Shown: positions 1,921 to 25,670, counted from the stretch's first letter. The stretch: 64,000 nt of DNA from an uncultured Acidobacteriota bacterium (GCA_963832495.1 CAWHUF010000014.1:279308-343307); one strand, 5' to 3'. Notes: generated by a model not told the origin, from the sequence alone. A program made the numbers and translations.

Positions 1921-1947
1921 AAAAGCCGTTCCGCCGGGGCCGCCGCG

Positions 1948-2055
1948 CTAGTCGCCGCCGCCACCCGCCTCCGCGCGTGGAGCGGAGAGAGCGCCCGCGA
2001 GGACCGCGGTGACCGCGATGACGAGCGCCAGGGACAGGAAGAGGATTTTGCGCAT
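1948..2055 (-). CDS. short signal-peptide ORF (35 aa), possible 5' remnant of a secreted repeat protein
   Basis: The minus strand encodes MRKILFLSLALVIAVTAVLAGALSAPRAEAGGGGD then a stop. GGAGG lies 8 nt upstream of the ATG. The ORF is in a different frame from the repeat-encoding minus frames, so a frameshift is possible. Confidence 0.3.
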   Translation of the reverse strand: MRKILFLSLALVIAVTAVLAGALSAPRAEAGGGGD

Positions 2056-2138
2056 TACCCGCCTCCATTCAGGTCTTTAGGACCCATTAAACAGGGTGCT
2101 CGCCGAGAATCCAGGGGGACAAGCGTTATATATAGACA

Positions 2139-3561: not shown

Positions 3562-3714
3562 CCTTCCCGCCCTGTCCATATCTCACTGTCTCAATAAGAT
3601 TGAACGAACGCTTAAACGGGCGTAACGTCATGGAAGTCCTTAGCGCTTCCAATCGATCTGCCCAAAGGCTTCCCGGGCCAGCCGCGTTGGCGGAGTTGAG
3701 GCGAAGGGAGAGCC

Positions 3715-9169: not shown

Positions 9170-9184
9170 AGATCGCGATGTTCG

Positions 9185-12100
9185 ATGGAAAAACGCATGG
9201 AAGAAACCAAGCCGATTCAAGATCTATGGTTGTCACTGGCGGACGTTCTACCCGAGGGCTGGCGGAGCGGTGGCGCCGCTGTCATACTTGAAGATTTGTC
9301 CTTTGTTGACGCTCTATTATCTTCGGAGGGAGATGATAGATTTACCCTTGCAATAACAATTGGATCGGATACCCCGCTCGATCTGGAGATCCCCGGACTA
9401 CCAGATCTCGGGATAACGGTCGGCGAATTCGACAACTTCGGTTATACGCTAGAGTTGGAGTACGCGGCGGGCGTTTTGTCTGCCAGTGTCGTTGACGTAC
9501 CTATCACCATCTATTTGCCTGACTCATTTCTTCGGCCGGTGGATGATGAAGACGGACTCGGCTTGATCGGTCAGGGAGTTTTTCGGATTTCCTCTCGCGG
9601 GGAGATTCAGATTCAACTCGTCGATGGCCTCAATTTGCCGTCTTGTTATCTGGGTGATTCAGGTATTATAATTTCGGCTTCGAACCTCGACGTAGATTTG
9701 TCCGTCGTCAGTAGTCCTCCGGAGGTGCTGGCGGCGGGCTTTGACGAATCCTTCATCGGCTTGTACTTCCAAGAAGTACGCATTACGCTACCGGCAGGTT
9801 TTCCGAGTCTTGCCCCGGAAGACCTCGTTCTGAAGAAATGTGTCATTGGATCGGGTGGTGTGAGCGGAGAACTCGATCTCACGTATACCCCGAAGTATGA
9901 TGCAGCGTCTAAAACGTTCAGCGGGCCAGGTGCCGGAGATCTGTTCGGGATTTCGTTTGGCCTCGAGCATGTACAGGTCATGCTTCGAAAGAATGCGCTG
10001 ACGAAGTCGAGCTTTATAGGGAAACTGTTGCTTCCGTTCTTTGAAGAGCCCGTAGAAGTTGATGTCGGCTTCGATCTCGATGGCAATGTGACCGTAGAAA
10101 TTACTGGCAGCGGCGCGGGAGGGTTGAAGACCATTACGAAGCCAAACGTAATGAGTATAGAGCTAGACTCCATCGGTGCGGAGTTGGATGATGGCCTCTT
10201 TGCGGTCAAAATCGCCGGTAAGCTCACCCCTCTTTTCGGCGGCCTAGATTGGCCTACCTTCGACGTCAAGGAGCTGTCGATCGACTCCAAGGGCCACGTC
10301 CACCTGGACGGCGGCTGGTTAAATGTCCCCGAGCAGAAGACTCTCGACTTTTACGGCTTCAAGATCGAAATCTCCCAGCTCGGCTTCGGCAAGAACGACG
10401 ATGGCAGCAAGTGGATCGGATTCTCGGGCGGCTTGAAACTCGTCGAGGGCCTCCAAGCCGGGGCGTCGGTCGAGGGGCTACAGATCACTTGGCGCGAGGA
10501 TGGGAGCCTTCCCAGGATCACCCTGAACGGTGCTGGCGTCGAGCTTTCGATTCCTGGAGTCCTCCACCTCAAGGGAGAGGTCTCCTACAAGGAGCTCGAG
10601 ATCGACGGGGAGACGATCCGCCGCTTCGACGGCGGCATCCATCTCTCCTTGGAGACCCCGGAGCTCGAGATTGACGGCACCTTGGTCATCGGCTCGGTCA
10701 AGGGGCCGCAGGGCCGGTACAACTTCTTCGCCATCTACGTCGACGTCGATCTGCCCACCGGCATCCCGCTCGCCAGCACAGGGCTCGGGATCTACGCCTT
10801 CGCCGGTCTCTTCGCGCTTCAGATGGAGCCCAACAAGCGCCCGGACGAGATGTGGTTCAGCATCGATCACTCGAAGAGCTTCTACCACCGCGACACTCCG
10901 GGCATCACCGATCTCAAGAAAAAGTGGGATCCGAGAAAAGGGAGCTTCGCTGTCGGCGCGGGGATCACTCTCGCCACGCTCTCGGACAATGGCACCACCT
11001 TCAATGGCCAATTCCTGCTCGCCCTCGTCACCCCGGGGCCGATCGCGCTCATTCAGGGGGCCGCCTCGTTCCTGAAGAAGCGGGCGGACGGGAAGGACGA
11101 GGGGCAGTTCCGCGCTCTCACCGTGATCGATGGCCGGGCGGGCAGCATTTTGATCGGCATCGACGCCGAGTACAAGACCGGCAGGGGCGGAGAGATGATC
11201 GAGATCGGCGGCAGCATGGAGGCGTTCTATGCCTTCCATGATCCCACCGCCTGGCGCCTCTACCTGGGGAAGAACGAGCCGCGCGAGTTGCGCATCCGGG
11301 CCCTCCTCGGCCGCTTCGTCGAGGCCAACGCCTACTTCATGCTGGACGCCCACCAACTCGCCCTGGGCGCCTGGTTCGGCTACAACAACGGCTGGAGCTT
11401 CGGTCCCTTGAGCATCCGGCTGGAGGCCTGGGCGGACGGCAACGCGCTCCTCAGCTTCAAGCCCAGCCATTTCCATGGCGATCTCTGGCTCCATGCCCTG
11501 GTGGAGCTCAAGGTCTTCGGGCTCGGGTTGGGCCTCTCCTTGGACGCCAAGATCGCGGCCGACCTGTTCAGGCCCTATCACCTGCGCGGCGAGTTCAGCG
11601 TCGGGATCAAGCTCCCCTGGCCGTTCAAGAAGAAGATCGGGGCCACGGTGGTGCTGGAGTGGGGGCCGCGGCCGGACGCTCCGCCGTTGCCCCTGCCGGT
11701 GGCGGACGTCGCGGTCGAGCACCGCAAGAGTACGGTGGTTTGGCCGCTGAACCGGGGCAGGTACCTGCTGCCGAGCTACGACGACGGCGGTGGCTTCCTT
11801 GCCCAGAGTGGACCCCATCTCCAGCCCGATCTGTCGAAGCTGCCGCGGGTGCCGGTGGACGGCCGGATCTCGGTCACCTTCGGCCGCTCGGTCCACGACG
11901 TGTCGATGGTGGGGAGCAACGTGCAGCCGGTCGATCCTACGAAGGAGCGGATCGGCAACCCTGGCGGCCCGGCGGTGGTGGAGGTCAAGTACTCCCTGAC
12001 GCGCACCGCCCTGGAGAGTTGGGACGGTCAGGGGTGGCAGACCGTAGCGGCCAGCCCGAAGACGGGGATCACGCCATCCCTATATGGAATGTGGGTGCCG

Positions 12101-15100
12101 GCACCTCAGCTCCCGGCAGGGAACGCCAATCCCCCGAAGCCGGCCCAGACCAAGCTGCTGCTGTGGTCCAAGAATCCGTTCGACTTCATACGTCGTACAG
12201 GCTCATCGTGGGAGGAGTGGGTGACGGACGGGATGCCGGACTACCCTTGCATTCCGCCGCTTCCGGCCCAGGAGATCTGTTTCGATTTCGCGGACCTGGC
12301 TCCGGGCACGGTCATCCAGTCCCCCTGGATCCATCCCGGACCTCCCGTGTTCACCCTGTCCTGGGGGTTCGGCCCGGCGACGGTGCAGGAGCGCCTCGTG
12401 CCGGTCCCCGGGGCTGTGCGGAAGGTGAAAACCCTCTGCTTCCCCGTGGCCGCGGCCCGGAATGGAGTGCAGATCCATTCGGACCAGCCAGGCCGGTCGT
12501 TCCGTATCGTCCTGGCCCAGGGGGAAGTTGCGCAGCCGGTCCCTACTGCTTCCGGGGTCGCGGTGGCACCTATTTTCACGACTATCGACGATATTCCTGT
12601 GTGTATTGACTTCCGGAGGTGGACGGTCGGCACGCAGGTAAACCCGTGGGTGGAGGAGGGCGTTCGCTTCGAGGTCCGCGGAGCAGATGGCGGGCTCCTG
12701 CCCGTGGCCCGGGTCGAGCGGTGGGGCTCGGGTCTTCCGGGCCTGGGCGCCGGCTTCCGGCTCGACGTTGCCCTGCCTTGCCCCTCCCCATGGGTGGAGT
12801 TGGTAGTCACCCATCGTCCCCCCTTCCGGATCGTGGCCTTTGACGCCAAGGGCGTGGCAGTGGCCACCCATGCACCAGGAGGAACGAGCGGTGAGGTGAC
12901 TGAAACAATCCGCTTGGAGGGGCCGGCCATCACCCGGGTTGAGGTGCACGCGGCGGGCAACGAGAAGCTGGTCCACCGGGTCTGTTACACCTGTCCACGG
13001 CCGAAGGTGCCCTGGGCCACCGGCTTGGGTGCAGATGGTGAGGTCTTCGGACCGTTCTTCCCGGTCGGTGGCGATATTGAGATCCCGGGGGAGGACATGC
13101 CCGAGGTGGTGGTGACGAACGACGGGCCTCTTTGTCTGGAGCGGATCTGCGTCACACCGGACCCGGAGACCGGCCAGGAGGTGCGGCGGAAGGAGGCGAT
13201 CGAGCACATCCGTGAGGAGTTGGCCCGCTGGCGGCAGGAAGGGGCGGTGCTGGCCCCCCACACGGCTTACAGGCTGGTGATCGAGACCTCCGTCGCGCCC
13301 CAGGCCTTGGTGAGCCTGAACAACTTCCCTCCATCGAGCCTTGACCTCACGCCGGTCGAGTACGCCTACTTCCGGACCTCCGGCCCGCCCGGGCTGGGGG
13401 TTCTCGATCCACCGGAAGGCCTGTCGCCATCCACGGTCTTCTCGACCGGGCTCGACGACCTCACCCGGTATGTGCGGGAGACGACGCCGCCCACGGTGCC
13501 GCCGCCGGGAGAAAAACCGATTCTCTTCAAGCCGTTCTATCGTGCCTATGACATCGGGGTGGAATTCAACGAGGACTACGTCGAGCAGATGTACCGCATG
13601 GACCGGCGGGACCTCGGGCTCTATCTCTACGACAACAACAACCAGCCGGTTCGAGATGCGGAGGGGCGGCTCCTGGTCCTCGGCAACCGGTGGGGGAGGG
13701 CGGAGACGCTCAGCCTCTCCGAACGGGACACCCGCTGGGTCACGCTGATCGACGCCGCCACCTGCCTGCCGAAGAAGCTCGATCCCAAGACCTTCCCGCG
13801 CGACAGCACGCTGGTGTCTTCGGAGCCGGGCCGGGTTCTCGCCGCGGACACTCTCTACGAGCCGCGCCTGGTCCCCATGCTTCTTCACGAGGCCTTCTCA
13901 GGTTCTTCCCTGGGCGCTGTTCCTCCCGGCTGGTATCGAGAGGACTCGGGGCCGGGCGGGCCGTCGGACTGGAAGGTGGGGGAGGCGGGGGAGCCTCCGA
14001 GCCGGTTCGTGGAGCAGCTCTCGACGATCGGCGGCGCCGGGCCGGATCGGCCGGGCACGCTGCTGCTCCTGGCCGAGTCCTCGGCTTGGACGGACTACCG
14101 GGTGAGCGTCTACGTCGGCTCGGCGGCGGGCGGGGCCGTGGGCGTGGTGGTGCGCCACCAGGGGCCGGGCACGGGCTACCGGTTCTCCCTCGATGGCCGG
14201 GTCCGGCGGCTGGTCAAGGGGGATGCCACTCTCCTGGGTGAGGATCATTTCGCGTACCGGAGGAACCGGGACTATCTCGTGACGTTCGAAGCCCTGGGCT
14301 CCTCGCTCAAGGTCTATCTGGACGGCGAGCCCGTGTTCGAGGTGACGGACGAGGACTTCAAGACCGGCCGGATCGGCCTCTACGTGTGCCAGAGCCCGGG
14401 CGCGCGGTTCAGCGACGTGCGGGTGGACGACTTCCGCGCCGAGGCGCCGGTGGTCTACCGGTTCCAGCTCACCACGTCCCTGTTCGCCAACTTCTTCCAT
14501 CACCTCCACAGCTTCCAGGACGAGACCTGGCGGGCCGAGCTCGAGGAAGATCCCGGGGGCCTGCTGAAGGAAGCGGTGGAGCTTTCGCTCTCGCCTCCCG
14601 ACGAGAAGGAGGCTCGGGCTTACGAGGCGCTGGCGAAGAGCGCACTGCAATCCGCTGCGCTCCAGAACCCGCGGCAGGTGGAGGTCACCCGCCTGGAGTG
14701 GGAGAGCCAGCCCGTGGCCTTCCTGCTGCGTAGCCCCGAGCCCCTGGCCTGGGACCGCGTCTCCATGGCCTTCTTTATCGGGCCTGTCCGCGACCTGCCC
14801 GCGGAGCCGCCCGGCGCGGTGAAGCTCGTGGAGGCGTCCTTCGGGACCCTGCCGGGCGACGAGTCCGTCACGCTGCTTCTGCGCGAGGCGGTGGACCTCT
14901 CCCGGTGGCGGATCGAGCTGCGCCTCCCTTCCGGTCCCCTGCCGGAGCCGGAGGGGGATCCCGTGATGCTCCTCGAGAGGTTCCAAGGCGATCCCCAGGC
15001 TGTGCTGGACCGCTTCACCGTGGCCGATATGGGAACGGAGAACGGTCCCTCCGACTGGCGAGTCGAGGGCGGAGCGCTGATCCAGGTCTCGGAGATCCAC

Positions 15101-16555
15101 GGCGGCGCCGAGCCGGAGCTGCCGGGTACGGTGGCGGTGACGGGCGATGCGGACTGGACGGACTACCGGCTCGCCGTGGACCTGCGGTCGGACTCGGGCA
15201 GCGGCCTGGGGATCGTGTTCCGCTGGGTAGACGGCGACAATCACTACCGTCTCTCCCTCGACGCCGGGCTCAAGTACCGGCGGCTGGTCAAGCGCGAGAA
15301 GGGGGTGGTCTCCATCCTCTGGGAGGAGGAGAAGGGGTACGCGGCGGGCGAGCCGCTCCGGCTGACGGTCGAGGCCGTGGGCTCCCGGCTGACGGGCTTT
15401 CTGGGAAGCGACCGGCTGTTCGAGGTCACAGACGCCGCCCACGCCGCCGGCCGGGTAGGGCTGTACGCCTCCGGCAATCCGGACGCCCGCTTCGAGAAGA
15501 TCGAGGTGCGCCAGCCGTCCCTCGACGTCTATGCCCTGGTCCGCGACCGGTTCGCCGCGGGGGACCTTACCGGCTGGCTGCGGACCGACGAGGCCGCGGC
15601 GCCGCAGCCTTCGACCCTGGAGGCCGTTGGCGGAGCGTTGATCCTGCGCAGCTTCGTCCAGGAAGAGGACGGCGGGACCTTCCCCGGCAGCTACGCCTTC
15701 ATCGGTCCGCCGTTCAAGGACGCCGTCTGCAGCGCCAGACTGCTGTGCCATTTCGGCGGGGCGATCGGGATGGTCGTCCGCGGCCAGGATTTGAACAACT
15801 ACTACCGCTTCTCCATGGACGCCCAGAGGGGCTACCGGCGGCTGGTCAAGAAGGTGAAGGGCCAGACCACCGTGCTCTGGGAGGACGGCGTCGCCTACAC
15901 GCCGGGCCAGGTCTACGAGCTGACCGTGGCGGCCGTGGGCACCTCGCTCCGGGGCTATCTCGACGGCATTCCCTTGTTTTCCGTGGAGGATGGGGACGTC
16001 TCCGCCGGCGTCATCGCCCTCTATGCCTGGAACAATCCTGAGGCCTTATTCTCCCAGGTGCGGGTCTTCCCTGCGGACCGCGCCGTCGAATCCTCTCCGG
16101 AGCCGCGGTGGACGACCTGGTACGCCTTCGGTGGCGAGGAACGGCTGCCGGCGGGCACCCGGCTCCGGATCTCCGCCGGACCCGAGGCGGGAGCGCCCCC
16201 TGCGGAGCCAGGGACCGAGCGCCGCTTCGCCGCTCCCCTGGGAGAGACGGGCCGCGCGCGTTTCCCCGCCACGGAAGCGGAGTTGCGGGTGGTGGGGCCG
16301 GAAGGGCCCGGGCATACCCGGACCCTCCTGCCCTATTCGGACTATGTGATCCTGCCTCCGCCCCGGGTGTTGCGCCGGGCAGATGGCACCGGGCTCGTGG
16401 TGGTCCCCTCTGGCGGCTCGCCTCTGGGGGAGGCGTGGTACCAGTTGAGCTTCACCTACGACCGGAAGAGGGGGGAGGAGGTCCATCCCTTCAGCCAGGC
16501 AGGAGACCAGAACCCGGAGAGGGTCACAATCGACATCCCCTGGAAGGCGCGCTAG
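9185..16555 (+). CDS. giant hypothetical protein (2456 aa) with three tandem LamG/DUF1080-like (concanavalin-like jelly-roll) modules near the C-terminus
   Basis: A single 7.4-kb ORF. It has three ~190-aa repeats sharing WTDYR / GxG(V/I)V(V/F)R ... YR(F/L)S(L/M)D ... RRLVK ... LxGED ... Y ... VxxxGxxLxxYLDG ... F ... D ... GR(I/V)GLY ... RF..V(R/E)V. An unrecognised N-terminal ~1500 aa precedes them. There is no signal peptide. It ends 12 nt before the histidine kinase gene. Confidence 0.65.
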   Translation: MEKRMEETKPIQDLWLSLADVLPEGWRSGGAAVILEDLSFVDALLSSEGDDRFTLAITIGSDTPLDLEIPGLPDLGITVGEFDNFGYTLELEYAAGVLSASVVDVPITIYLPDSFLRPVDDEDGLGLIGQGVFRISSRGEIQIQLVDGLNLPSCYLGDSGIIISASNLDVDLSVVSSPPEVLAAGFDESFIGLYFQEVRITLPAGFPSLAPEDLVLKKCVIGSGGVSGELDLTYTPKYDAASKTFSGPGAGDLFGISFGLEHVQVMLRKNALTKSSFIGKLLLPFFEEPVEVDVGFDLDGNVTVEITGSGAGGLKTITKPNVMSIELDSIGAELDDGLFAVKIAGKLTPLFGGLDWPTFDVKELSIDSKGHVHLDGGWLNVPEQKTLDFYGFKIEISQLGFGKNDDGSKWIGFSGGLKLVEGLQAGASVEGLQITWREDGSLPRITLNGAGVELSIPGVLHLKGEVSYKELEIDGETIRRFDGGIHLSLETPELEIDGTLVIGSVKGPQGRYNFFAIYVDVDLPTGIPLASTGLGIYAFAGLFALQMEPNKRPDEMWFSIDHSKSFYHRDTPGITDLKKKWDPRKGSFAVGAGITLATLSDNGTTFNGQFLLALVTPGPIALIQGAASFLKKRADGKDEGQFRALTVIDGRAGSILIGIDAEYKTGRGGEMIEIGGSMEAFYAFHDPTAWRLYLGKNEPRELRIRALLGRFVEANAYFMLDAHQLALGAWFGYNNGWSFGPLSIRLEAWADGNALLSFKPSHFHGDLWLHALVELKVFGLGLGLSLDAKIAADLFRPYHLRGEFSVGIKLPWPFKKKIGATVVLEWGPRPDAPPLPLPVADVAVEHRKSTVVWPLNRGRYLLPSYDDGGGFLAQSGPHLQPDLSKLPRVPVDGRISVTFGRSVHDVSMVGSNVQPVDPTKERIGNPGGPAVVEVKYSLTRTALESWDGQGWQTVAASPKTGITPSLYGMWVPAPQLPAGNANPPKPAQTKLLLWSKNPFDFIRRTGSSWEEWVTDGMPDYPCIPPLPAQEICFDFADLAPGTVIQSPWIHPGPPVFTLSWGFGPATVQERLVPVPGAVRKVKTLCFPVAAARNGVQIHSDQPGRSFRIVLAQGEVAQPVPTASGVAVAPIFTTIDDIPVCIDFRRWTVGTQVNPWVEEGVRFEVRGADGGLLPVARVERWGSGLPGLGAGFRLDVALPCPSPWVELVVTHRPPFRIVAFDAKGVAVATHAPGGTSGEVTETIRLEGPAITRVEVHAAGNEKLVHRVCYTCPRPKVPWATGLGADGEVFGPFFPVGGDIEIPGEDMPEVVVTNDGPLCLERICVTPDPETGQEVRRKEAIEHIREELARWRQEGAVLAPHTAYRLVIETSVAPQALVSLNNFPPSSLDLTPVEYAYFRTSGPPGLGVLDPPEGLSPSTVFSTGLDDLTRYVRETTPPTVPPPGEKPILFKPFYRAYDIGVEFNEDYVEQMYRMDRRDLGLYLYDNNNQPVRDAEGRLLVLGNRWGRAETLSLSERDTRWVTLIDAATCLPKKLDPKTFPRDSTLVSSEPGRVLAADTLYEPRLVPMLLHEAFSGSSLGAVPPGWYREDSGPGGPSDWKVGEAGEPPSRFVEQLSTIGGAGPDRPGTLLLLAESSAWTDYRVSVYVGSAAGGAVGVVVRHQGPGTGYRFSLDGRVRRLVKGDATLLGEDHFAYRRNRDYLVTFEALGSSLKVYLDGEPVFEVTDEDFKTGRIGLYVCQSPGARFSDVRVDDFRAEAPVVYRFQLTTSLFANFFHHLHSFQDETWRAELEEDPGGLLKEAVELSLSPPDEKEARAYEALAKSALQSAALQNPRQVEVTRLEWESQPVAFLLRSPEPLAWDRVSMAFFIGPVRDLPAEPPGAVKLVEASFGTLPGDESVTLLLREAVDLSRWRIELRLPSGPLPEPEGDPVMLLERFQGDPQAVLDRFTVADMGTENGPSDWRVEGGALIQVSEIHGGAEPELPGTVAVTGDADWTDYRLAVDLRSDSGSGLGIVFRWVDGDNHYRLSLDAGLKYRRLVKREKGVVSILWEEEKGYAAGEPLRLTVEAVGSRLTGFLGSDRLFEVTDAAHAAGRVGLYASGNPDARFEKIEVRQPSLDVYALVRDRFAAGDLTGWLRTDEAAAPQPSTLEAVGGALILRSFVQEEDGGTFPGSYAFIGPPFKDAVCSARLLCHFGGAIGMVVRGQDLNNYYRFSMDAQRGYRRLVKKVKGQTTVLWEDGVAYTPGQVYELTVAAVGTSLRGYLDGIPLFSVEDGDVSAGVIALYAWNNPEALFSQVRVFPADRAVESSPEPRWTTWYAFGGEERLPAGTRLRISAGPEAGAPPAEPGTERRFAAPLGETGRARFPATEAELRVVGPEGPGHTRTLLPYSDYVILPPPRVLRRADGTGLVVVPSGGSPLGEAWYQLSFTYDRKRGEEVHPFSQAGDQNPERVTIDIPWKAR

Positions 16556-16567: not shown

Positions 16568-17881
16568 ATGAAACCCCTCCGTCTCGCCACCCGCGTCCGC
16601 CTGGCCTTCGTCGCGGCCCTGGTGCCCGTGATCGGCTTCGCCATGGCGGCGGCGTACTGGTTCCCATCCCCCTGGACCGTCTTCGCCGCCGCCGTCTGTT
16701 TCGGCCTGCCGGCGGGATGGTGGATCCTCGACCGGGTCCTCCTCCCCGCGACCCGGGTCCTCCAGGCCCTGCGCGACGGCGTCCAGGGCTACCGCGACCA
16801 CGATTTCAGCCTGAACCTGGCGGTCGACCGCAAGGACGAGCTGGGAGATCTTGTGGACCTCTACAACAACGTAGGCGACGTGCTGCGGGAGGAGAGGAAC
16901 GCCATCCTCCAGCGCGAGATGCTGCTCGAGACGGTCTTCGAAGCGACCCCCATGGCGATCGTCCTCACCAACGAGCGTGACCGCGTGATCTTCGCCAACC
17001 GCACGGCGCGCGAGGTCTTCTTCACCCGGGGGCGGCTCGAAGGGCGGGTGTTCGGCCAGCTCCTGGAGGAATGCCCCGACGGGCTGCGCGAGGCGCTCTC
17101 CGGCGGGCGCGACGCGCTGTTCTCCCTGGAGAGCGGGGGCGAGGAGGAGGTCTACCACGTGTCCCGCCGGACCTTCGAGCTCAACAGCCGGCGGCACGAC
17201 CTGACGCTCATCAAGCGGCTCACCCCGGAGCTGCGGCGCCAGGAGGTGGACGTCTGGAAGCGGGCCATCCGCACCCTCTCGCACGAGATCAACAACTCGC
17301 TCGCCCCCATCGCCTCGCTCGCCCGCTCCGTGCGCGTCATGGCCGAGAACCCCGAGCACCGCGGCCGTATCGGCTCGGCCCTCGACGTCATCGAGGAGCG
17401 CTCCACTCATTTGAAAGATTTTTTGGAAGGCTATGCCCGTTTCGCCCGCCTCCCTCAGCCCAACAAGCGAGAGGTGGAATGGAAAGGTTTTCTCACGGAG
17501 CTCCAACAGGTCGTCCCCTTCGAGTTGGAAGGAGAGCCGCCCTCCGCTCCAGGATGTTTCGACCCGGCCCAGATGCAGCAGGCCCTGATCAATCTCCTGA
17601 AGAACGCCCATGAGTCCGGGAGCCCGCCCGGGGAGGTGAAACTGGCCGTGGACGCCCTGGGCGACGGTGGCGTCCGCTTCCGTATTCTGGACCGTGGAGC
17701 CGGCATGACCGAGGAGGTGATGAGGAAAGCGCTCCTGCCGTTCTACACCTCGAAGCCGGGCGGCTCCGGGCTGGGCCTGCCGCTCTGCCGGGAGATCGTC
17801 GAGGCCCACGGCGGCCGGCTGCGCATCGAGCGCCGGGAGGGCGGAGGGACGGCAGTGGTGTGCTGGGTGCCGGGGAGGTGA
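16568..17881 (+). CDS. sensor histidine kinase, NtrB-like (2 TM, PAS-like, HisKA, HATPase_c)
   Basis: TM helices (LAFVAALVPVIGFAMAAAYWF ; VFAAAVCFGLPAGWWIL) are followed by the H-box LSHEINNSLAPI and an ATPase region (INLLKNAHES ... DRGAGMT ... GGSGLGL). It is the likely partner of the sigma-54 regulator at 2139. Confidence 0.8.
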   Translation: MKPLRLATRVRLAFVAALVPVIGFAMAAAYWFPSPWTVFAAAVCFGLPAGWWILDRVLLPATRVLQALRDGVQGYRDHDFSLNLAVDRKDELGDLVDLYNNVGDVLREERNAILQREMLLETVFEATPMAIVLTNERDRVIFANRTAREVFFTRGRLEGRVFGQLLEECPDGLREALSGGRDALFSLESGGEEEVYHVSRRTFELNSRRHDLTLIKRLTPELRRQEVDVWKRAIRTLSHEINNSLAPIASLARSVRVMAENPEHRGRIGSALDVIEERSTHLKDFLEGYARFARLPQPNKREVEWKGFLTELQQVVPFELEGEPPSAPGCFDPAQMQQALINLLKNAHESGSPPGEVKLAVDALGDGGVRFRILDRGAGMTEEVMRKALLPFYTSKPGGSGLGLPLCREIVEAHGGRLRIERREGGGTAVVCWVPGR

Positions 17882-17893: not shown

Positions 17894-17922
17894 GACCCGC
17901 CCCGCCGAAGCGGAGCGGGCTG
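17894..17922. terminator. GC-rich hairpin between convergent HK gene and paralogue 1
   Basis: The sequence gacCCGCCCCGCcgaaGCGGAGCGGGctg forms an imperfect 10-bp stem. Confidence 0.4.
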
Positions 17923-17943: not shown

Positions 17944-18273
17944 TCAAGGAATCGGCGGGCCGCAGTCAACTCGGCAGCCGTAGGTGGCCGAGCCGTCCAC
18001 CACCCACATGCTGCCCGACGCGTAGCAGGGGGGGAGGGTGAAGGCGCAGACCAGCGTAGCGCCGCCACAGTCAGCCTGAGCTTCGGGCAGTCTGGCCGCC
18101 CGGAACTGTGCCTGGGCGTCCGCGCACGTGGCCGCCATCTTCCAGTCAGGCGAGGTGCTGTAGCCACCGTCGTCGCAGCACAGGATGGCGTGGGCCGGTT
18201 CCGGCGTCGAGAACGCCGCGGTACAGGCGAGCACGGCGACCAACAGCACTCCCAACAGAGTCAACCTCTTCAT
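17944..18273 (-). CDS. small secreted cysteine-rich protein, paralogue 1 of 6 (Sec signal peptide + 8-Cys mature domain)
   Basis: It encodes MKRLTLLGVLLVAVLACTAAFSTPEPAHA|ILCCDDGGY ... C ... C ... C ... C ... C ... C. AAAGGAG lies 9 nt upstream. It shares a conserved 5' leader with the other paralogues. Confidence 0.8.
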   Translation of the reverse strand: MKRLTLLGVLLVAVLACTAAFSTPEPAHAILCCDDGGYSTSPDWKMAATCADAQAQFRAARLPEAQADCGGATLVCAFTLPPCYASGSMWVVDGSATYGCRVDCGPPIP

Positions 18274-18435
18274 AATCTCGTTCTCCTTTCGGAAAGGGAC
18301 TTCATACGCTACTCAATGTGCGTACCAGGGGTAAATGCGAGCCCTGCGGGCGTGATATCCTGGTCATCTTCGTTGGAGTGACGCATGAACCGGGAGGCCC
18401 ATCCCGGTAAGCGGTGGGCCTTCCGGGCCAGAGTG

Positions 18436-18786
18436 CTACGGGTAGATCGGTTCGCGCGGGCAGGACTCCTTGCAGCTGAACGTCATGGCCCCGCTCACGA
18501 TCCAAGGGTTGGCCGGGTCCTGCGCGTACCAATCGTAGCAAGGGGGGATGGTGATGGCGCAGACCAGAGTGGAGCCGCCGCAGAAGGCGTTGGCCTCCGG
18601 CCGTGCCAATGCACGGAACGAATTTTGGGCATCTAAGCAGGTGGGCCCGTGGGTCCAGTAAAGGCTGGTCGTATATCCACCGTTGTCGCAGCACATGACC
18701 GCGTGGAGGGGGGTGGGCTTCGAGAGGGCGGCGGTACAGGCGACGACGGCGACCAGCAGGGTCCCTAAAAGTGCAGCTCTCTTCAT
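18436..18786 (-). CDS. small secreted cysteine-rich protein, paralogue 2
   Basis: It encodes MKRAALLGTLLVAVVACTAALSKPTPLHA|VMCCDNGGYTTSLYW ... CGGSTLVCAITIPPCY ... SCKESCP. An AAAAAGGAG RBS is present. Confidence 0.8.
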   Translation of the reverse strand: MKRAALLGTLLVAVVACTAALSKPTPLHAVMCCDNGGYTTSLYWTHGPTCLDAQNSFRALARPEANAFCGGSTLVCAITIPPCYDWYAQDPANPWIVSGAMTFSCKESCPREPIYP

Positions 18787-18846
18787 TGCATTTCTCCTTT
18801 TTGAGACGTACTTCGTCCTACGACGGATCTCCCCGAGGCGTCAGAG

Positions 18847-19188
18847 TCATGGATAGATCGGGCACTGTTCCTTGCATCCGAACGTCATGACCCCGCTGGC
18901 CACCCAAGGGTTGGCTGGGTCTTCCCAACCCCAGTAGTAGCAAGCGGGGATGGTGATGGCGCAGACCAGAGTGGAACCGCCACAGAAGTCATTGGCCTCT
19001 GGCCGTGCCATGGTCCGGAATATTGTCTGGGCCTGCGCGCATGTGGGCGCCTTGACCCAGTACTGGCTGGTCTGATAGCCACCGTTGTCGCAGCACATGA
19101 TTGCGTGGGCCGGTTTCGGTGTCGAAACCGCGTAGCTACAGACGAGAACGGCCACCAGTAGAGCGCTCAGCAATGCAACTCTTTTCAT
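18847..19188 (-). CDS. small secreted cysteine-rich protein, paralogue 3
   Basis: I chose the internal start MKRVALLSALLVAVLVCSYAVSTPKPAHA|IMCCDNGGYQTSQYW ... , with an AAAAGGAGAG RBS. The longer track ORF (to 19392) is an N-terminal extension without support. Confidence 0.75.
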   Translation of the reverse strand: MKRVALLSALLVAVLVCSYAVSTPKPAHAIMCCDNGGYQTSQYWVKAPTCAQAQTIFRTMARPEANDFCGGSTLVCAITIPACYYWGWEDPANPWVASGVMTFGCKEQCPIYP

Positions 19189-19451
19189 CTTGGCTCTCCT
19201 TTTCGGGATATGCGTTTTACACCCTTCAGAGTGCATAAGAGAGGCTGAAGCGAGCCGCCACGGATTCCCTGTCCGAGCATCCCTGGAAGAGGTGCGGCGG
19301 CCGGCGGTGGAGCCTTTAGGAGACAGTGGTGTCCGTTTCTGTGTACAGGACCAGACAGGATCGTCAAAGCCCAATGGCGATCGGCTACGCATCGAGGATG
19401 GAGGGACGACGGTGGTGTGCTGGGGGCCGGGAGGCTGAAAAGGTTACTGAA

Positions 19452-19486
19452 AGCCCCGCCCCCGGCACAGCGCGGGGGCGGGCTCA
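19452..19486. terminator. rho-independent terminator-like hairpin downstream of paralogue 4
   Basis: The hairpin GCCCCGCCCCCGgcacagcgCGGGGGCGGGC is followed on the minus strand by TTTCAGT. Confidence 0.5.
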
Positions 19487-19508
19487 TTGAGTTCAGCTCG
19501 GGCGCGGT

Positions 19509-19838
19509 TTACGGAAGGATCGGGCCGCAGTCTTCCTTGCAGCCGTACGTCGCGATACCGTCCACCACCCACATGCTGCCGGACTGATAGCAGGGCGGAA
19601 TGACCAGGGCGCAGACAGCCGTGGAGCTGCCGCAGGTCAGAGCGGCCTCCGCTCGCGCCTCGTTCCGGTACGCCGTCTGGGCCTCCGAGCACGTGGCCGC
19701 CATGTGCCAGTACTGCTGAGTGGTGTACCCGGCGTTGTCACAGCACATGATGGCGTGGGCCGGTTCCGGCGTCGAGAGCGCCGCGGTACAAGCGAATACG
19801 GCAATGACCACAGCGCCCAGCAGAGCAAATCTCTTCAT
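19509..19838 (-). CDS. small secreted cysteine-rich protein, paralogue 4
   Basis: It encodes MKRFALLGAVVIAVFACTAALSTPEPAHA|IMCCDNAGYTTQQYW ... CGSSTAVCALVIPPCYQSGSMWVVDG ... GCKEDCGPILP. The RBS is AAAGGAG. Confidence 0.8.
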   Translation of the reverse strand: MKRFALLGAVVIAVFACTAALSTPEPAHAIMCCDNAGYTTQQYWHMAATCSEAQTAYRNEARAEAALTCGSSTAVCALVIPPCYQSGSMWVVDGIATYGCKEDCGPILP

Positions 19839-19959
19839 TCCTTGTCTCCTTTCAGAAGGGACTTCGTACGGTATACATTGTACGTGCCAGGGGGTAAAAG
19901 GTTTGAGATCAGGAGCAGAAAATTCTGATCCAATATGTTGGATGGGCTGGTTGTTCTGA

Positions 19960-20026
19960 GTTATTTTTTAAAATATTACTATCGGAATGGGGAGAGGCAG
20001 TCCGCAAGCGAGACGGACTGCCTCCG
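19960..20026. terminator. A/T-rich segment plus hairpin downstream of paralogue 5
   Basis: An A/T-rich stretch gttattttttaaaatattac precedes the hairpin GAGGCAGTCCGcaagcgagaCGGACTGCCTC. On the minus strand the hairpin is followed by a T-rich run. Confidence 0.5.
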
Positions 20027-20048
20027 AAGCTGGCTGGCGTATCCGGGA

Positions 20049-20375
20049 TCAGGGGATGGGAGGGCCGCAATCCACCATGCACCCGTGGTACATGTGCCCG
20101 TCCACCACCCACATGCCACCGGACTGGTAGCAGCCGGGGATCGAGATGCTGCACGGATCCCCGCCGCCGCAGTTGGCGTAAGCTTCGTCAATCGCCGCAG
20201 CCCGGAACGCCGACTGGGCTGCCGCGCACGTTGGCTCCATCAACCAGTACTGGCTGGTGCCGTAGCCGCCGGGACTGTCGCAGCACGGGAAGGCGGCCAG
20301 TTTCGGCGTCGAGAGAGCGGCGGTACAGACGAGGACAGCCACCAGCAGGACACCCAGCAAGGCAGTTCTCTTCAT
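20049..20375 (-). CDS. small secreted cysteine-rich protein, paralogue 5
   Basis: I chose the internal start MKRTALLGVLLVAVLVCTAALSTPKLAA|FPCCDSPGGYGTSQYW ... , with an AAAGGAG RBS. Confidence 0.75.
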   Translation of the reverse strand: MKRTALLGVLLVAVLVCTAALSTPKLAAFPCCDSPGGYGTSQYWLMEPTCAAAQSAFRAAAIDEAYANCGGGDPCSISIPGCYQSGGMWVVDGHMYHGCMVDCGPPIP

Positions 20376-20449
20376 GTCTCTTCTCCTTTCAGAAAAGACG
20401 ATCCACACTTATGGGTGCGTGGGAGGGATTGAAGCGAGCCGGGAGCCGC

Positions 20450-20487
20450 AAAAGAAAGCCCGTCCAAGGAAACGGGCTTCTTCTTGG
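20450..20487. terminator. bidirectional rho-independent terminator between paralogues 5 and 6
   Basis: The hairpin AGCCCGTccaaggaaACGGGCT has T-runs on both strands (TTCTTCTT / TTTCTTTTG). Confidence 0.6.
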
Positions 20488-20513
20488 CCTACTTTGCTAC
20501 CAAGAAGAGTTTT

Positions 20514-20843
20514 TCATGGCAGAGGCGGGTCGATCGGGCACTGCTCGCGGCAGCCATGCGACGCGATCCCGTCCACCACCCACATGTTGCCGGACTGGTA
20601 GCAGCCGGGAATCACAAGGCCACAGGCCCCCGAACCGCCGCAGTTGGCGTTGGCGTCCACCAGCGCCGCGGCCCGGTAGGCCGACTGGGCCTCTGAGCAC
20701 GTGGCTGCCATGTGCCAGTGCTGGTTCGTTTCGTAATAGCCCTCGCAGCACAGGATAGCGTGAGCCGCTTTCGGCGTTGAGAGGGCGGCGGTACAGGCAA
20801 GTACCGCCACGAGCAATGCTCCTAACAATGTAGCTCTCTTCAT
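20514..20843 (-). CDS. small secreted cysteine-rich protein, paralogue 6
   Basis: It encodes MKRATLLGALLVAVLACTAALSTPKAAHA|ILCCEGYYETNQHW ... CGGSGACGLVIPGCYQSGNMWVVDG ... GCREQCPIDPPLP. Confidence 0.8.
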   Translation of the reverse strand: MKRATLLGALLVAVLACTAALSTPKAAHAILCCEGYYETNQHWHMAATCSEAQSAYRAAALVDANANCGGSGACGLVIPGCYQSGNMWVVDGIASHGCREQCPIDPPLP

Positions 20844-20950
20844 CTTTGCCCCTTTCAGAAGGTGCTTCGTCTACTAGTCAAGGTGCTGGAGGCAGGCTGA
20901 AACGAGCCACTGCGAGACATGATATTCTGGCGACAGTTGAGGATTATTGC

Positions 20951-21556
20951 ATGAAATATAAAACAACGTTCCCAAGATCCCTGGCGCTGGCCGCCGTAGT
21001 GGGTGTCCTCTCCGGTGCCTGCGCTTCCACAGTACCGACTCCGCGTTCCCAGGCTGAGACCGAGGCCGTGCGCGAGCAGGACGTCTCGGATGCCCGGCTC
21101 GAGACCGAGGTCCGTCTGGCTCTGCTCGAGAAACTCGGCGAGGACGGGCTCGGCGTGACGGTCGAGGCGCTTGGGGGCCGGGTCAGTCTGATCGGCGCTG
21201 TGGACAAGCGCACCACCCAGGAACTGGCCGAGGAGGTCGCGAAATCGGTCCCAGGGGTGCAGAGCGTGGAGAATCGTCTCTTTGCCCGCCAGGAATCGCC
21301 CGAGAAGACCGCGGCCGGCCGCGCGGCCGGCTCCGCCGAGCGCGAGGTGAACGACGCCGTGCTCGAAATGCGGGTGGGCAAGAATCTGTTGGGAGAGATC
21401 GGCCGCTATGCAATGGACCTCGAGGTCGAGGCGACCGATGGTGTGGTCAGCCTGCGCGGTACGCTGCCCGACAGGGAGCGCAAGTCGCTGGCCTTGAAAA
21501 CGGCCCAGGGCACCTCGGGAGTCAAAAAGGTCGTCGATCTGTTGCAGGTACAATAG
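20951..21556 (+). CDS. BON-domain lipoprotein (OsmY-like, two BON domains)
   Basis: I chose the internal start MKYKTTFPRSLALAAVVGVLSGAC, which carries a lipobox, with GAGGA 9 nt upstream. Two BON-like repeats follow (VRLALLEKLG ... VTVEALGGRVSLIGAV ; VLEMRVGKNLLGEIG ... VEATDGVVSLRGTLP). Confidence 0.75.
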   Translation: MKYKTTFPRSLALAAVVGVLSGACASTVPTPRSQAETEAVREQDVSDARLETEVRLALLEKLGEDGLGVTVEALGGRVSLIGAVDKRTTQELAEEVAKSVPGVQSVENRLFARQESPEKTAAGRAAGSAEREVNDAVLEMRVGKNLLGEIGRYAMDLEVEATDGVVSLRGTLPDRERKSLALKTAQGTSGVKKVVDLLQVQ

Positions 21557-21600: not shown

Positions 21601-21885
21601 TTGGAGAGAGGCGTGTCTCTGGCAAGCTGGTTCCGTAATCTGTTGACCCCCCGGCCGCAGCCCGCCCAGGCCGAGCTCGGCCGCAACGACCTCTGCTGGT
21701 GTGGCAGCGGGAAGAAGTACAAGAAGTGCCACCTCAAGAGCGACGAGCTGAAGCGGATCGAGGACGGCTACGCCGCCCGGGCGGCTGCCGCCCAGAAACG
21801 GGCGAGCGGTGGCATTGTGCCTGGCAGCGGCGGTAAGAAGGCCCAGAAACCGGAGAAGGCTGCCGAGCCCCCGGTCAAGCGTTGA
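21601..21885 (+). CDS. SEC-C motif domain protein
   Basis: It contains the CWCGSGKKYKKCH metal-binding SEC-C motif. Confidence 0.6.
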   Translation: MERGVSLASWFRNLLTPRPQPAQAELGRNDLCWCGSGKKYKKCHLKSDELKRIEDGYAARAAAAQKRASGGIVPGSGGKKAQKPEKAAEPPVKR

Positions 21886-21952: not shown

Positions 21953-24900
21953 TCAGGAAGTGCGGCGGCGGCGCATCTGGACGAGTGCGGCGCCGGCGAG
22001 CAGGAGGATGAGGACGGCGAAGCCGATCTCGGAGAGCGTGGGGATGTCCGCCATCAGTGGGGCTCCCGCGATCACCACGGTCGGATCTCCGGGCGCCGCG
22101 GTGTTCGGATCGTCCGTCACGGCATTGGTTTCGTTGGTGCCGTTGCCGTCGGCGTCAAAGGAGACCTGACCCTGGTTGGAGATCGCCTGGCCGCCGGTGG
22201 TGACGAGGGCGTTGATGGTGATCGTCACCGAGCCGCCCAGGGGAGCGATGGAGCCGTTCCAGGTCACCGTGTTGGTGGGGATCGTGGCCACCGCTGTGCC
22301 CGAGGTGGCGCTGGCGCTCACCAGGGTGAGAGCCGCGGGCAGCACGTCGGTGAATTCGTTGCCGGGGTTGTCCGGCTGGCTGGAGGTGCCGTTGTTGGTG
22401 AGCGTCACGGTATAGGTGACCGCGCCGCCCTCCGTGAAGTTGCCGGAGACCGTCTTGGTGGCGCTCACCAGGGGCAGGGGAGAGAAGGGCGTGCAGGCGA
22501 AGGCCGTGGGCGTCACGATCAGCGACCAGGCGTTGAGCGTGCCCGTTTCGGGGCCGAAGATGTCGGACACCAGGACCTTCCAGTCGCCCTGGGTGGACAG
22601 GCCGTCCACCCGGGAGAGCTGGCCGACGGGGTCGGGGAAGATGTTCGGATTGCCGAACAGCAGCCAGATCTGCGAGTTGAAGGCCGGCGCCCAGGAGCCG
22701 GTGAAGGGCGCGTCGGTGTCGGCCGACTGGTTGAGGTCGTTCGTGGATTCGTCGTCGATCACCGTGTTGAGGAAGTCGTCGCCGTCACCGCCGCCCAGCA
22801 AGGCGGCCTCGCGCTGCCAGATCAGGTCGGCGCCGTAACCATTGGGGGCTTTCAGGAGCACCGTCAGGTCGCCGGTGAAGGTGTGCTGGAGGTCGTCCAC
22901 CCGGAAATCGAGATCGGCGATCTCCAGGTCGTCGGCGACCGTCAGGGTGTCGACGATGCCCCGCCGGTCGCCGTCCGGGATGGCCAGGCCGGGAGCCAGG
23001 GTCTTGGTGAAGGTCACGGGCGCGCCGGTGCCCGAGGCGGCGCCCACGCGGACCGTGAAGCCGGCTGTCGAGGTGCCGAGGGCGCTCACGGTGGTCAAGG
23101 TGAAGCGGAGCGACTGGCCGCAAAGGGCGCTGGGCGAAACCGTGAACAGGAAGGTGTCGCCGTTGGCGGTACCCTGGGCCGCGATGGCGCCGTAGGTGGA
23201 CGCGCCATCGAAGATCGTCACTCCCGCCGTCGAGGAGGTCAGGGTGGCTGTGGCGCCGGCGGCGTTGAACGCCGAGCTCCGCCAGGGATTGGTCAGGCTC
23301 ACTGTGAGCCGGACGGGCTCGCCGGGATCGATCGCGCCGTTGTTGTTCCCCAGGCTGTCGTCGACGGTCGTGGCCGCCACGTCCAGGTGGGGCAGGGAGA
23401 ATGACTCGCCCACGCCCAAGTGGGCGACGCCGGAGAAGCCTGCGTGCCCCAGGGGTGAGACGGCGCCGTAGCCCAGGCCGCGGTCGGCGAAGCCTTCCCA
23501 GATCCACCGCTCGTTGGCGCAGGCGTTGGTGGCGCAGTCGGCCAGGATCAGGGCATCGCGGGCGTCGGTGAAGCTGGGGTTCGACGGCGTCATCTTGAGC
23601 CCGTCGGTGACGAGCTGGAGCATGGTCTGGTTACCGGTGGGCACGTCGCCGTTGGCGCCCGCGGGGTCGGCGATGATGCGGGCCCGGACTTCCCACAGCG
23701 ACACGGCCCAGATCTCTCCGGCGTTGAAGATGTCCATGGCGCCGTTGATCGAGCCTCCCAGGGGACTGGGGGGGATGCCGCCGGAGACATTGGCGGTCGT
23801 GTCGTCCACGTCCGCCCAGGTCAGGGGGTTGACCGAGTTGTCGGTCGAATACGGGAAGCGGCGCGAGCCGTAGAGGTAGTTCTCGACCAGGTGGTTGTTC
23901 TGGTACTTGGAATAGGAGTGGTAGGCGTAGTTGGCGTCGGGATCGTCGGCGTTGGTGTTGTTGAGCAGGGCGAGGGCGTAGAAATCGCTCCAGCCCTCTC
24001 CCAGGGCGCGGCCGACGCTCCAGAGGAGGCCGCCGGCGTTGCCGACCAGGCGGTTGGAGGTGCCGTGGGTCAACTCGTGGAGGATGATCTCGGAGTCGAG
24101 GTCGCTGTCGCGGTTCGGGATGGGCTCGATGAACCGGTGCATGGTCAGGCGGCCGGACGCGCCGTCCGGCGGGGTCGAGAAGCTGGGGACGTTCTGCCCC
24201 TGTCCATCCTGGGCGTCGGCACGGATCCGGTCGTTGCCCACCCCCATGCCGCTGAAGTTGACCTGCTGGAAGTTGCCGGCGGCCTCGTCGAAGCCCAGGT
24301 TGAACAGCCGGTCGTGGTACCAGTTGGCGACGTAGAAGAGATGGGTGACGGCGCCGCGCCGGTAGTTGATCTGGGTGACGCCGTTGCCGGTCGGCTCGTC
24401 GCCCGCGTCCGGGTTGCCTCCCAGCGGCGCCGGCGTGTAGCTGTAGTCGCGCGGCGCGGCACCCAGGAAGTCGCGGTTGTTGCTGTTGCCGTCCGGGTTG
24501 CCCACCGGCCGGCCGTTGTTGTCGATCGTGCCGATGTCACAGACGTTCCGTTCCGTGGCGATGGGGGTGACGATGCGGTCGACGCAGGCGTCCACGTTGT
24601 TGCCGGTCGTGGTCGTGCCGCCGTCCGGGATCCAGCCGTCGGGGCTGGCCGTGATGTCCTGAGCGGTCAGCATGCTTACCGTGGTGCGGGAGATCTCCGG
24701 AAACTGGGTGCCCGCGCCCGGCGCGACGGTGGTGGGCGAGTGGGGCGCCGGGCTGTCGGCCGGGGTGACGCCGTCGGCCTGGACGTAGACGTTGAAGCGG
24801 GCCTGCTGGGTGGAGACGTGCTCCCGGATGTCCTTGCGCCAGAGCAGGGTGCCGGTGGTCGCGTCCACCAGGGTGAACCAGTCGGAGTCGCCGCTGGTGA

Positions 24901-25670
24901 AGGTGACCTGGCGCCAGGCGGGCACCAGCCGTCCGGGCGCCGCCGCGAAGTAGACGAGGCCGCTCGACGCGTTGCCGTCCGTCTCCTCCACGCCGGCCGC
25001 CTTCAGGGCCTCCTTGGAGGAGATCTTCGCCAGCGAGATCGGGGTGGCCGCGGCGCCCGCGGGCACCAGCAGGCCCAGTGAGCGCCAGACCCGTCCCTCG
25101 CGGTCGAGGATGAACCGCGTCTCACTCTGGAAAATGGGGTGACCGTCGATCCGCTGCTCGACCCGCACCATGCGCAGGCCGCTCTTCGGGCTCACGCTCT
25201 CGCCGATGAAGTGGAGGCCGTCGATCTCCTCCGAGGTCAGGCCGTATAGGGCTCTGTTGGTGCGCAGGAAGTCGCGCACGATGTCGATGCCGGGCCGGCC
25301 GGGCGCCGGTGCGGACAGCGCTCTTCTCTCTCCGGACACGATCTCGGGTGCGGCGGTGATCTCCGAGAACCGGGCGTTGGCGCCGGGTGCCTGGACCCGC
25401 AGGCGTTCGAGCGCCTGCTTCATGGTCCGGACCTGCTGAGTGAGCTCCGCCCGGGTGGGCGCGCTCTTGAGCGGCACCCCGGCGCTCCCGGAGAGGACCG
25501 TGGCCAGGGTGCGCGGCGCCATGACCCGGGCGTCGTAGTTGCCGGTGGGGAGCTTCGGTTTCTGCGCCGGTGCCGCGATCGCCCCCTGGGGAAGGAAGAG
25601 CAACATCAACAAGGCAGCTTCACCAAGGAGGAGCACGGGGGGCCTCTGGCCCGGGAACTTCCAGCGCATG
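21953..25670 (-). CDS. secreted M36 (fungalysin-like) metallopeptidase with proprotein-convertase P-domain, DUF11 repeat and IPTL-CTERM sorting signal
   Basis: The signal peptide starts at internal Met MRWKFPGQRPPVLLLGEAALLMLLFLPQGAIAAP, with a GGAGAT RBS. It contains ILHELTHGTSNRLVG (the M36 HExxH motif). A P-domain-like segment is present (FTGDLTVLLKAPNGYGADLI). A DUF11-like segment follows (VTYTVTLTNNGTSSQPDNPG ...). The C-terminus is IPTLSEIGFAVLILLLAGAALVQMRRRRTS (IPTL-CTERM). Confidence 0.8.

Follow-up and report, generated by a model that had tools for sequence, protein, structure and literature searches.

What a bacterium does with six tandem genes for small, exported, cysteine-rich proteins is the question raised by a 64,000-nucleotide stretch of DNA from an uncultured Acidobacteriota bacterium (GCA_963832495.1 CAWHUF010000014.1:279308-343307), to which we refer at its full length as the window. 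The feature under study spans positions 17944-20843 and comprises six consecutive minus-strand open reading frames (ORFs) with products of 108-116 amino acids. On the sequence evidence, their products form a previously undescribed, small family that is restricted almost only to Acidobacteriota, and in all 15 related loci of the close family the genes lie on the strand of a gene for an M36 (fungalysin-type) metalloprotease. A tentative answer to the question is that the proteins bind this protease.

The original prediction of six minus-strand genes for small exported proteins with eight cysteines is borne out by ORF calls, alignment and a codon-pattern scan. Four of the copies belong to a short-loop subtype: copy 1 (17944-18273; 109 aa, identical to P0003; loop SGSMWVVDG), copy 4 (19509-19838; 109 aa, identical to P0001), copy 5 (20049-20375; 108 aa, identical to P0012) and copy 6 (20514-20843; 109 aa), which is divergent from a neighboring gene for a BON-domain protein. 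Copies 2 (18436-18786; 116 aa; loop DWYAQDPANPW) and 3 (18847-19188; 113 aa) represent a long-loop subtype. The true start of copy 3 is the MKRVALL codon, internal to a 181-aa ORF (18847-19392), and that of copy 5 is MKRTALL, as the ORF first called begins too early. The other copies are 57-64% identical to copy 1, and 35 alignment columns are invariant across all six, including the eight cysteines of the mature domain and C17 of the signal peptide. A degenerate codon pattern derived from the invariant residues has six matches in the 64-kb window, exactly the six copies, against 0 expected by chance from 100 shuffles. Tandem Repeats Finder, which reports only periods of up to 500 bp, misses the array, whose genes are spaced 402-650 bp apart.

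Searches of reference collections gave the proteins no name. None of the six copies matches a Pfam, NCBIfam or PADLOC model above threshold (Pfam and NCBIfam were searched at E up to 10), and a profile search of PDB sequences returned no match at E up to 10. The only recurrent weak match is Phr_nterm (TIGR04429), which scores 11-18 bits against a cutoff of 25 and covers residues 1-23, the signal peptide alone. An Rfam scan of the array yielded only a sub-threshold chance match. A word-indexed search of 5.8 billion proteins retrieved 81 members, all unnamed or "hypothetical", an exhaustive HMMER search of 1.84 billion cluster representatives retrieved 18 clusters at E ≤ 0.001, and a second profile, built on the distant members, brought in no more than some two dozen sequences. 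Sources, where named, are Thermoanaerobaculia, Thermoanaerobaculaceae, Holophagales or "Acidobacteriota" metagenome-assembled genomes, and the close family is present on just five GTDB species-representative contigs, all from Acidobacteriota. Pfam searches with the longer or fused homologues P0083, P0085, P0039 and P0060 identified no informative partner domain. A literature search brought up no title or abstract on a family of this kind or on a bacterial inhibitor of M36 enzymes. The earlier view that the family is unrecognized therefore stands, and no housekeeping family was found to contain it.

Each copy also begins with the Sec-type signal peptide that had been proposed for it. Read from the sequence, all six proteins start with MKR, continue with 18 uncharged hydrophobic residues and reach an A-x-A-type site, the general layout being MKR, about 18 hydrophobic residues and then S-T-P-x-P-A-H-A. 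The site reads AHA in copies 1, 3, 4 and 6, LHA in copy 2 and LAA in copy 5; across the 81 homologues, Ala at position -1 is kept in at least 90%, and A, L or V at position -3 is also conserved. All six products thus have the features of Sec and signal peptidase I substrates and are predicted to be exported as such. Cleavage at the [A/L/V]-x-A site would yield a mature protein of about 80 aa, with two residues ([I/L/V][L/M]) ahead of its CC pair. At least 90% of close-family members keep C17. A lipoprotein (signal peptidase II) reading of this residue is judged less likely than signal peptidase I cleavage because the lipobox position -1 is Val in copies 3 and 5, because C17 is replaced by V, F, S or L in three genomic-locus members and in further family members, and because distant members do not have it at all. 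A lipobox would moreover leave the conserved A-x-A site without explanation.

The mature domain is defined by the pattern CC-x16-C-x18-C-x6-C-x6-C-x16-C-x3-C. Its cysteine count is even in all members: eight, sometimes six or ten. C32, one Cys of the CC pair, and C76 are lost jointly in two members, extra cysteines come pairwise in single-domain members, and where the last Cys is displaced, another takes its place a few residues on. Even counts together with joint losses and gains mean that the cysteines behave as pairs, a pattern typical of disulfide-bonded extracytoplasmic proteins, and we assign the eight conserved residues to four putative disulfide pairs. An AlphaFold2 model computed with the 81-sequence alignment has a mean pLDDT of 87, with values of 95-99 over most of the mature core. 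The predicted fold is compact and of the alpha+beta type: two short strands at the N-terminus are followed by a helix of 20 residues (50-69), and residues 75-103 form an antiparallel sheet of four strands. Foldseek found no match for this fold in PDB or BFVD at E ≤ 0.001. Each end of the chain is short and adjoins a Cys. At the N-terminus, [I/L/V][L/M] precedes the CC pair. At the C-terminus, a proline-rich tail extends past the last Cys, by 4-7 residues in 77 of the 88 members; its final residue is Pro in 65 of the 88. This tail is typically (G)P[I/P/L]xP and is kept even in some homologues at approximately 30% identity.

We examined the genomic context in the window and in related loci, namely the genome or long-contig loci L001, L003-L006, L013 and L014 together with eight short metagenome contigs. 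In the window and all 15 related loci, each identifiable flanking gene belongs to one block, which encodes a response regulator, a histidine kinase, a BON-domain protein, a SEC-C-motif protein and the M36 protease; in Thermoanaerobaculia, the family genes are confined to this block. Domain searches corroborate that an M36 protease is encoded near the array. The M7-like protease that had been claimed alongside it is absent from the ten neighboring ORFs scanned. The M36 gene of the window (21953-25669, minus strand, the strand of the array) encodes a P-domain, DUF11 repeats and a C-terminal IPTL-CTERM sorting signal, ...IPTLSEIGFAVLILLLAGAALVQMRRRR (TIGR04174, 24.8 bits versus a cutoff of 20.5), indicating an exported, surface-sorted enzyme. 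The NCBIfam models for myxosortase-, rhombosortase- and T9SS-dependent M36 enzymes do not reach their cutoffs for this protein, which looks like a further sorting variant of M36 enzymes.

Within the block, the family genes, always on the M36 strand, occupy two fixed positions. Slot A lies directly 3′ of the M36 stop codon (L004, L005, L006, L013 and L024), with the first ATG approximately 10-100 nt past the stop. Slot B lies between the BON and kinase genes (the window, L001 and L014). Both slots are occupied in L004, L006 and L015. The number of copies per locus ranges from two to six, the window array being the largest seen. Relatives carry multiple copies, two to three or more, and the single conserved copy that would have contradicted the original prediction was not encountered.

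These observations lead us to propose, tentatively, that the proteins are rigid extracytoplasmic binders of their partner M36 protease, most likely inhibitors or modulators. After export, each protein would fold oxidatively into a protease-resistant four-disulfide scaffold and would then bind the M36 protease tightly, restraining it in the periplasm or on the cell surface. A plausible mode would involve insertion of a Cys-flanking terminus into the active-site cleft. The several subtypes would provide different binding surfaces, possibly also against foreign proteases. We favor this reading because the order of a protease followed by a small exported protein recurs in several genomes, because the scaffold is of a kind that proteinaceous inhibitors use, and because the short conserved ends flank cysteines. 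Exported bacterial proteases often have a small cognate inhibitor encoded in an adjacent gene, as in AprA/AprI, serralysin/Inh, staphopain/staphostatin and the KLIKK proteases with their potempins. Among the functions suggested for the array by the original prediction was protease inhibition, which gains circumstantial support from the invariant M36 linkage. A bolder and more doubtful extension of this proposal is that the family would represent a structurally novel class of proteinaceous protease inhibitors or immunity factors, a four-disulfide alpha+beta scaffold that would block M36 and perhaps other extracytoplasmic peptidases by insertion of a Cys-flanking terminus and would have expanded into subtype repertoires in soil Acidobacteriota.

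Several observations weigh against inhibition of the M36 protease. In Pfam, NCBIfam, PDB and Foldseek searches, the proteins resemble no known inhibitor family in sequence or fold, and two to six paralogues per protease would be unusual among cognate inhibitors. The window array is not cotranscribed with the M36 gene: opposite-strand genes for the BON and SEC-C proteins lie between, and an upstream element and a hairpin of its own accompany most copies. The linkage to the two-component and BON genes is as invariant as that to M36. The inhibitor model also leaves the highly conserved signal peptide without explanation. Finally, distant homologues are not found beside M36 genes. These homologues again form arrays, with five tandem copies in L011 and two in L008, and several lie near peptidases of unrelated classes (S9; S8 and M14-like; CHAT and M28; tricorn S41). 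The trend toward peptidase proximity would favor the proposal, but it is weak and post hoc, and such neighbors may be coincidental. In L011, we also considered an immunity array next to an amidase effector; this reading was rejected because the amidase beside the five-copy array has no signal peptide and resembles cytoplasmic AmpD.

The remaining genes of the block bear on a second explanation, which we regard as rather improbable. In this account, the small proteins would be periplasmic accessory or stress proteins of the two-component and BON module, induced by the NtrC-type regulator and serving as chaperones, protectants or kinase feedback modulators, comparable to ZraP with ZraSR or, in enterobacteria, to the sets of BhsA/YhcN (DUF1471) paralogues. 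The kinase and BON genes are as constant in the block as M36, and slot B falls between them. The BON-domain protein (20951-21556, plus strand) is OsmY/DolP-like and an apparent lipoprotein (LSGC motif), and the regulator (2139-3561, plus strand) is a ZraR/NtrC-like, sigma-54-dependent response regulator that adjoins the kinase gene in other genomes. The HAMP-PAS histidine kinase gene (16568-17881, plus strand) is convergent with copy 1, and the block is completed by the small SEC-C-motif gene (21601-21885, plus strand); the M36 gene is convergent to the regulator, kinase, BON and SEC-C genes.

The array had also been described as convergent with a sigma-54-controlled operon of giant proteins. 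It is indeed convergent with the kinase gene that closes a regulator-to-kinase string, into which this genome has inserted three large genes (1505, 315 and 2456 aa; 3715-16555, plus strand) whose only domain matches are DUF6603 and 3-keto-disaccharide-hydrolase/LamG-like; the sigma-54 part of the description finds no counterpart before the array genes, as described below. The regulator and kinase genes abut in L013 and are separated by approximately 0.3-1.4 kb in L001 and L014, without such large genes. In the metagenome contig L023, too, the kinase gene adjoins one for a homologue of the 2456-aa protein. The window regulator itself seems to be frameshifted near position 3290, with the receiver and AAA+ domains in the frame of ORF 2139-4208 and the C-terminal part matching another frame (ORF 3097-3561), which could reflect an assembly error or a pseudogene.

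Expression signals around the small genes speak on both sides of the stress-protein account. Every ATG is preceded, at a distance of 6-9 nt, by a strong ribosome-binding site (AAAGGAG or GAAAGG), as had been noted for each copy, and folding of the 3′ flanks revealed GC-rich hairpins of 9-13 bp after copies 1, 2, 4, 5 and 6 (z -2.2 to -3.1). Strong ribosome-binding sites and individual terminators would suit abundant proteins, as envelope stress proteins might be. All hairpins are on the minus strand. The hairpin after copy 1 (17895-17920; 11 bp, z -2.8) is followed by CUUUC and is terminator-like; the hairpin after copy 4 (19452-19485; 13 bp, z -2.2) is also followed by CUUUC. Further hairpins follow copy 2 (18390-18426; z -2.6) and copy 5 (19995-20024; 11-12 bp, z -2.5), and two adjacent ones follow copy 6 (20457-20508; z -3.1), the second succeeded by UUUCUUUUG. 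The 3′ flank of copy 3 folds into no hairpin, and only 60 nt separate this copy from copy 2, so that copies 3 and 2 are probably cotranscribed and the array would comprise about five transcription units ([6] [5] [4] [3-2] [1]). The proposal that each gene has its own hairpin terminator fails for copy 3, and that of independent transcription fits about five units instead of six genes. A simple consensus scan for sigma-70 promoters and terminators was uninformative; the hairpins were seen by direct folding.

Upstream of the genes, a 13-mer, GGCTCGCTTCAGC, recurs approximately 56-72 nt before family-gene ATGs. It occurs on the minus strand at 19244-19256, approximately 60-70 nt before the copy 3 ATG, with two mismatches at 20428-20440 upstream of copy 5, and with one mismatch at 20896-20908 upstream of copy 6, in the intergenic region common with the BON gene. 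A variant, GGCTCGCATTTAC, lies upstream of copy 1 (18331-18343, minus strand), is followed by TGGTACGCACATTGA and is nearly identical in L001. The 13-mer also precedes the first array gene in L003 (424-436), L004 (1920-1932), L005 and L006 (3822-3834), in places immediately 3′ of the M36 stop codon, and at up to two mismatches it has only three further occurrences in the window. It may be a promoter-, operator- or processing-site-like element. Its spacing, GG-N9-GC, is unlike the GG-N10-GC of sigma-54 promoters, and no sigma-70 promoter was recognized by eye.

A scan with the sigma-54 consensus (TGGCAC-N5-TTGC, GG-N10-GC spacing) found no canonical promoter before the array genes. Sites of the form TGGYACG-N4-(T/A)TG precede copies 1 and 4 only (TGGTACGCACATTGA and TGGCACGTACAATGT); each has two mismatches and lacks the C of the -12 GC, and neither is conserved family-wide. 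Across the window, 16 sigma-54-like sites were counted versus 19.5 expected, which is not above chance. Sigma-54 promoters as a family-wide feature are thus not supported by conservation, count or spacing, and this tells against induction by the NtrC-type regulator. Canonical sites of related loci lie elsewhere; in L001, for example, a perfect GGCAC-N5-TTGC site (18523-18536, minus strand) is located just upstream of the membrane-fusion (HlyD-like) adaptor gene that heads a MacB-type ABC exporter operon, suggesting that the neighboring NtrC-type regulator controls the exporter rather than the Cys-rich genes. The stress-protein account is further disfavored by structure, in that ZraP, Spy and CpxP are all-helical proteins without a disulfide scaffold.

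The evolutionary pattern of the genes bears on a third explanation, that they encode secreted competition factors, either Sec-dependent bacteriocin-like toxins or antifungal proteins, whose repertoire would widen the target range. We consider this unlikely. Tandem arrays of diverged copies exist in several lineages (six copies here, five in L011), the scaffold is small and disulfide-stabilized, and the wider neighborhood in sister genomes contains a MacB-type ABC exporter and another family of small eight-Cys peptides. Against this stand the mode of selection and the character of the proteins. By pairwise Nei-Gojobori estimates, mature-domain dS is 0.54-1.11, near saturation, and omega is 0.37-0.63. 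Sliding pN/pS over a 17-gene codon alignment revealed no sign of positive selection, as no 7-codon window exceeds 0.81. The two loop subtypes, short "SGxMWVVDG" and long "DW..DPANPW", are common to several genomes, and the nearest counterpart of copy 5 in the loci read is the L004 copy on the side of the BON gene. The paralogues are old and under purifying selection. Old divergence, omega below 1 and subtypes common to genomes together indicate a repertoire that diverged and was retained rather than one that diversifies rapidly, and the turnover expected of competition factors is not apparent. The mature domains are also acidic, with a net charge, counted from sequence, of about -4 for copies 1 and 2 and more acidic than basic residues in copies 3-6. 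The leader is Sec-type and not double-glycine, no gene for a membrane protein (immunity-like) lies within 17944-20843, and no bacteriocin or toxin family was matched in Pfam, NCBIfam or PADLOC. The earlier suggestion of a bacteriocin repertoire gained no support.

The same estimates revise the original prediction. It had described the loops as hypervariable and the family as diversifying; diversification in the sense of positive selection is not supported, and the loop variation consists mainly of two old subtypes. Its overall interpretation is partly borne out, namely for an undescribed, exported, disulfide-built family in tandem with mostly separate expression signals.

The signal peptide is under tighter protein-level constraint than the mature domain, with an omega of 0.06-0.37 over codons 1-29. 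The usual case is the reverse, signal peptides being less constrained than the mature domains they export. Gene conversion was rejected as the cause of this conservation because the synonymous sites of the signal peptide are saturated (pS 0.31-0.69).

A fourth explanation, to which we also assign only a small probability, is that the proteins are extracellular structural or substrate-binding components, such as matrix or coat proteins or lectin-like adaptors, that work with the surface M36 protease or are processed by it. Several paralogues that look highly expressed, a surface-anchored protease partner and exposed loops rich in aromatic residues (YYWGWEDPANPW, DWYAQDPANPW) would fit such a role. 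The proteins bear no likeness to carbohydrate-binding modules, hydrophobins or amyloid subunits, however, and they contain neither repeats nor a sorting signal. A fifth, that they are pro-signal proteins that would be exported and cut by M36 to release a fragment sensed by the adjacent kinase, in a logic akin to Bacillus Phr/Rap, is very unlikely: the block always combines genes for a protease, a sensor kinase and small secreted proteins, the proline-rich C-terminal tail is conserved and a weak Phr_nterm signal exists, but the Phr_nterm matches (at most 18 bits) lie in the signal peptide alone, a tightly folded four-disulfide domain would make a poor propeptide, and the tail is too variable for one receptor. 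The leftover probability goes to functions beyond inhibition of M36 and these four alternatives.

Additional features were observed in the window and at sister loci. A 21-bp tandem repeat, GGAAAGCCCGCCGCCCCTTAT (1714-1908; 9.3 copies, 75% matches), is intergenic, between a MacB/FtsX-type ABC permease gene and the response-regulator gene, and its period corresponds to two helical turns. In sister genomes, the region between the response regulator and a MacB-type ABC exporter encodes a second, unrelated family of secreted eight-Cys peptides (71-75 aa) with the core CP(x)CTYYxDGSxCCVSCxCxNG...ACTxxYCPP; three tandem copies are present in L013 (5245-5940, plus strand) and one in L001 (13577-13804, plus strand). 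No resembling ORF of at least 40 aa occurs at window positions 1450-2200, and a phmmer search of the window ORFs of at least 50 aa gave no match. Two stretches of the window, 8001-10000 and 38001-40000, have a G+C content of 0.52-0.53 versus approximately 0.68 elsewhere and may be horizontally acquired segments; the second overlaps a gene for a 972-aa HD-CE/HATPase_c_3 protein (37346-40264, minus strand).

The interest of the array depends in part on which explanation proves correct. Acidobacteriota are abundant in soils and poorly understood, and much of their exported proteome is without annotation. Should the proteins inhibit their partner protease, they would be the first proteinaceous M36 inhibitors from bacteria and would open a route to studying the control of IPTL-CTERM-sorted surface proteases. 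They would also give a new scaffold for the inhibition of fungalysin-type enzymes, which act as fungal virulence factors, and would show how such bacteria restrain a surface protease. Should they not be inhibitors, the unusual conservation of the signal peptide and the fixed positions of the two slots would still indicate a specific, undescribed envelope function. In either case, this is a clean new family to work on, with a confidently predicted fold, a clear disulfide scaffold and a fixed genomic partnership with M36 and a sigma-54-type two-component system.

Comparison with named systems places the array among several familiar designs. Fungal hydrophobins and other eight-Cys secreted families resemble it in having eight cysteines, in being secreted and multigenic, and in their size of approximately 80-100 aa; the hydrophobin spacing, C-CC-C-C-CC-C, differs from the CC-C-C-C-C-C-C found here, there is no sequence or fold match, and the array is bacterial. 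The DUF1471/YhcN proteins (BhsA, YahO, YdgH, SrfN) and dodecin-like small beta-alpha-beta sandwiches are further designs for comparison; for DUF1471/YhcN, there was no PF07338 match and no clear structural match. Among metalloprotease inhibitors, the N-terminal CxC wedge of TIMP resembles the CC pair of the array proteins (CxC in distant members), which lies two residues from the predicted mature N-terminus, and the ...CGPYVG tail of potato carboxypeptidase inhibitor resembles the likewise C-terminal ...C-G-P-x-x-P tail of the array. We take this likeness to terminus-inserting inhibitors (TIMP, Inh and carboxypeptidase inhibitors), which is limited to short motifs, to be only a lead. TIMP, potato carboxypeptidase inhibitor, Streptomyces SMPI and insect IMPI have OB-fold, knottin and beta-barrel structures, in contrast to the alpha+beta fold predicted here. 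No array protein matched the Pfam models for TIMP, Inh or CarbpepA_inh, and the array model had no fold match to a solved metalloprotease inhibitor (TIMP, Inh/AprI, SMPI or carboxypeptidase inhibitors).

The closest parallels in organization are AprI/Inh (serralysin inhibitors, MEROPS I38), the potempins of the Tannerella KLIKK proteases and the staphostatins, each of which, like the array proteins, is a small protein encoded beside an exported protease on the same strand. In common with cognate inhibitors, the array proteins have their own signal peptide, a rigid compact fold and short conserved ends that could enter an active site. Unlike AprI/Inh, potempins and staphostatins, to which they have no sequence or fold similarity, they have four disulfides and number two to six paralogues per protease instead of one. 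Overall, these comparisons reveal a system of a familiar kind, a lineage-specific tandem family of small secreted Cys-rich proteins, that is here tied to a protease.

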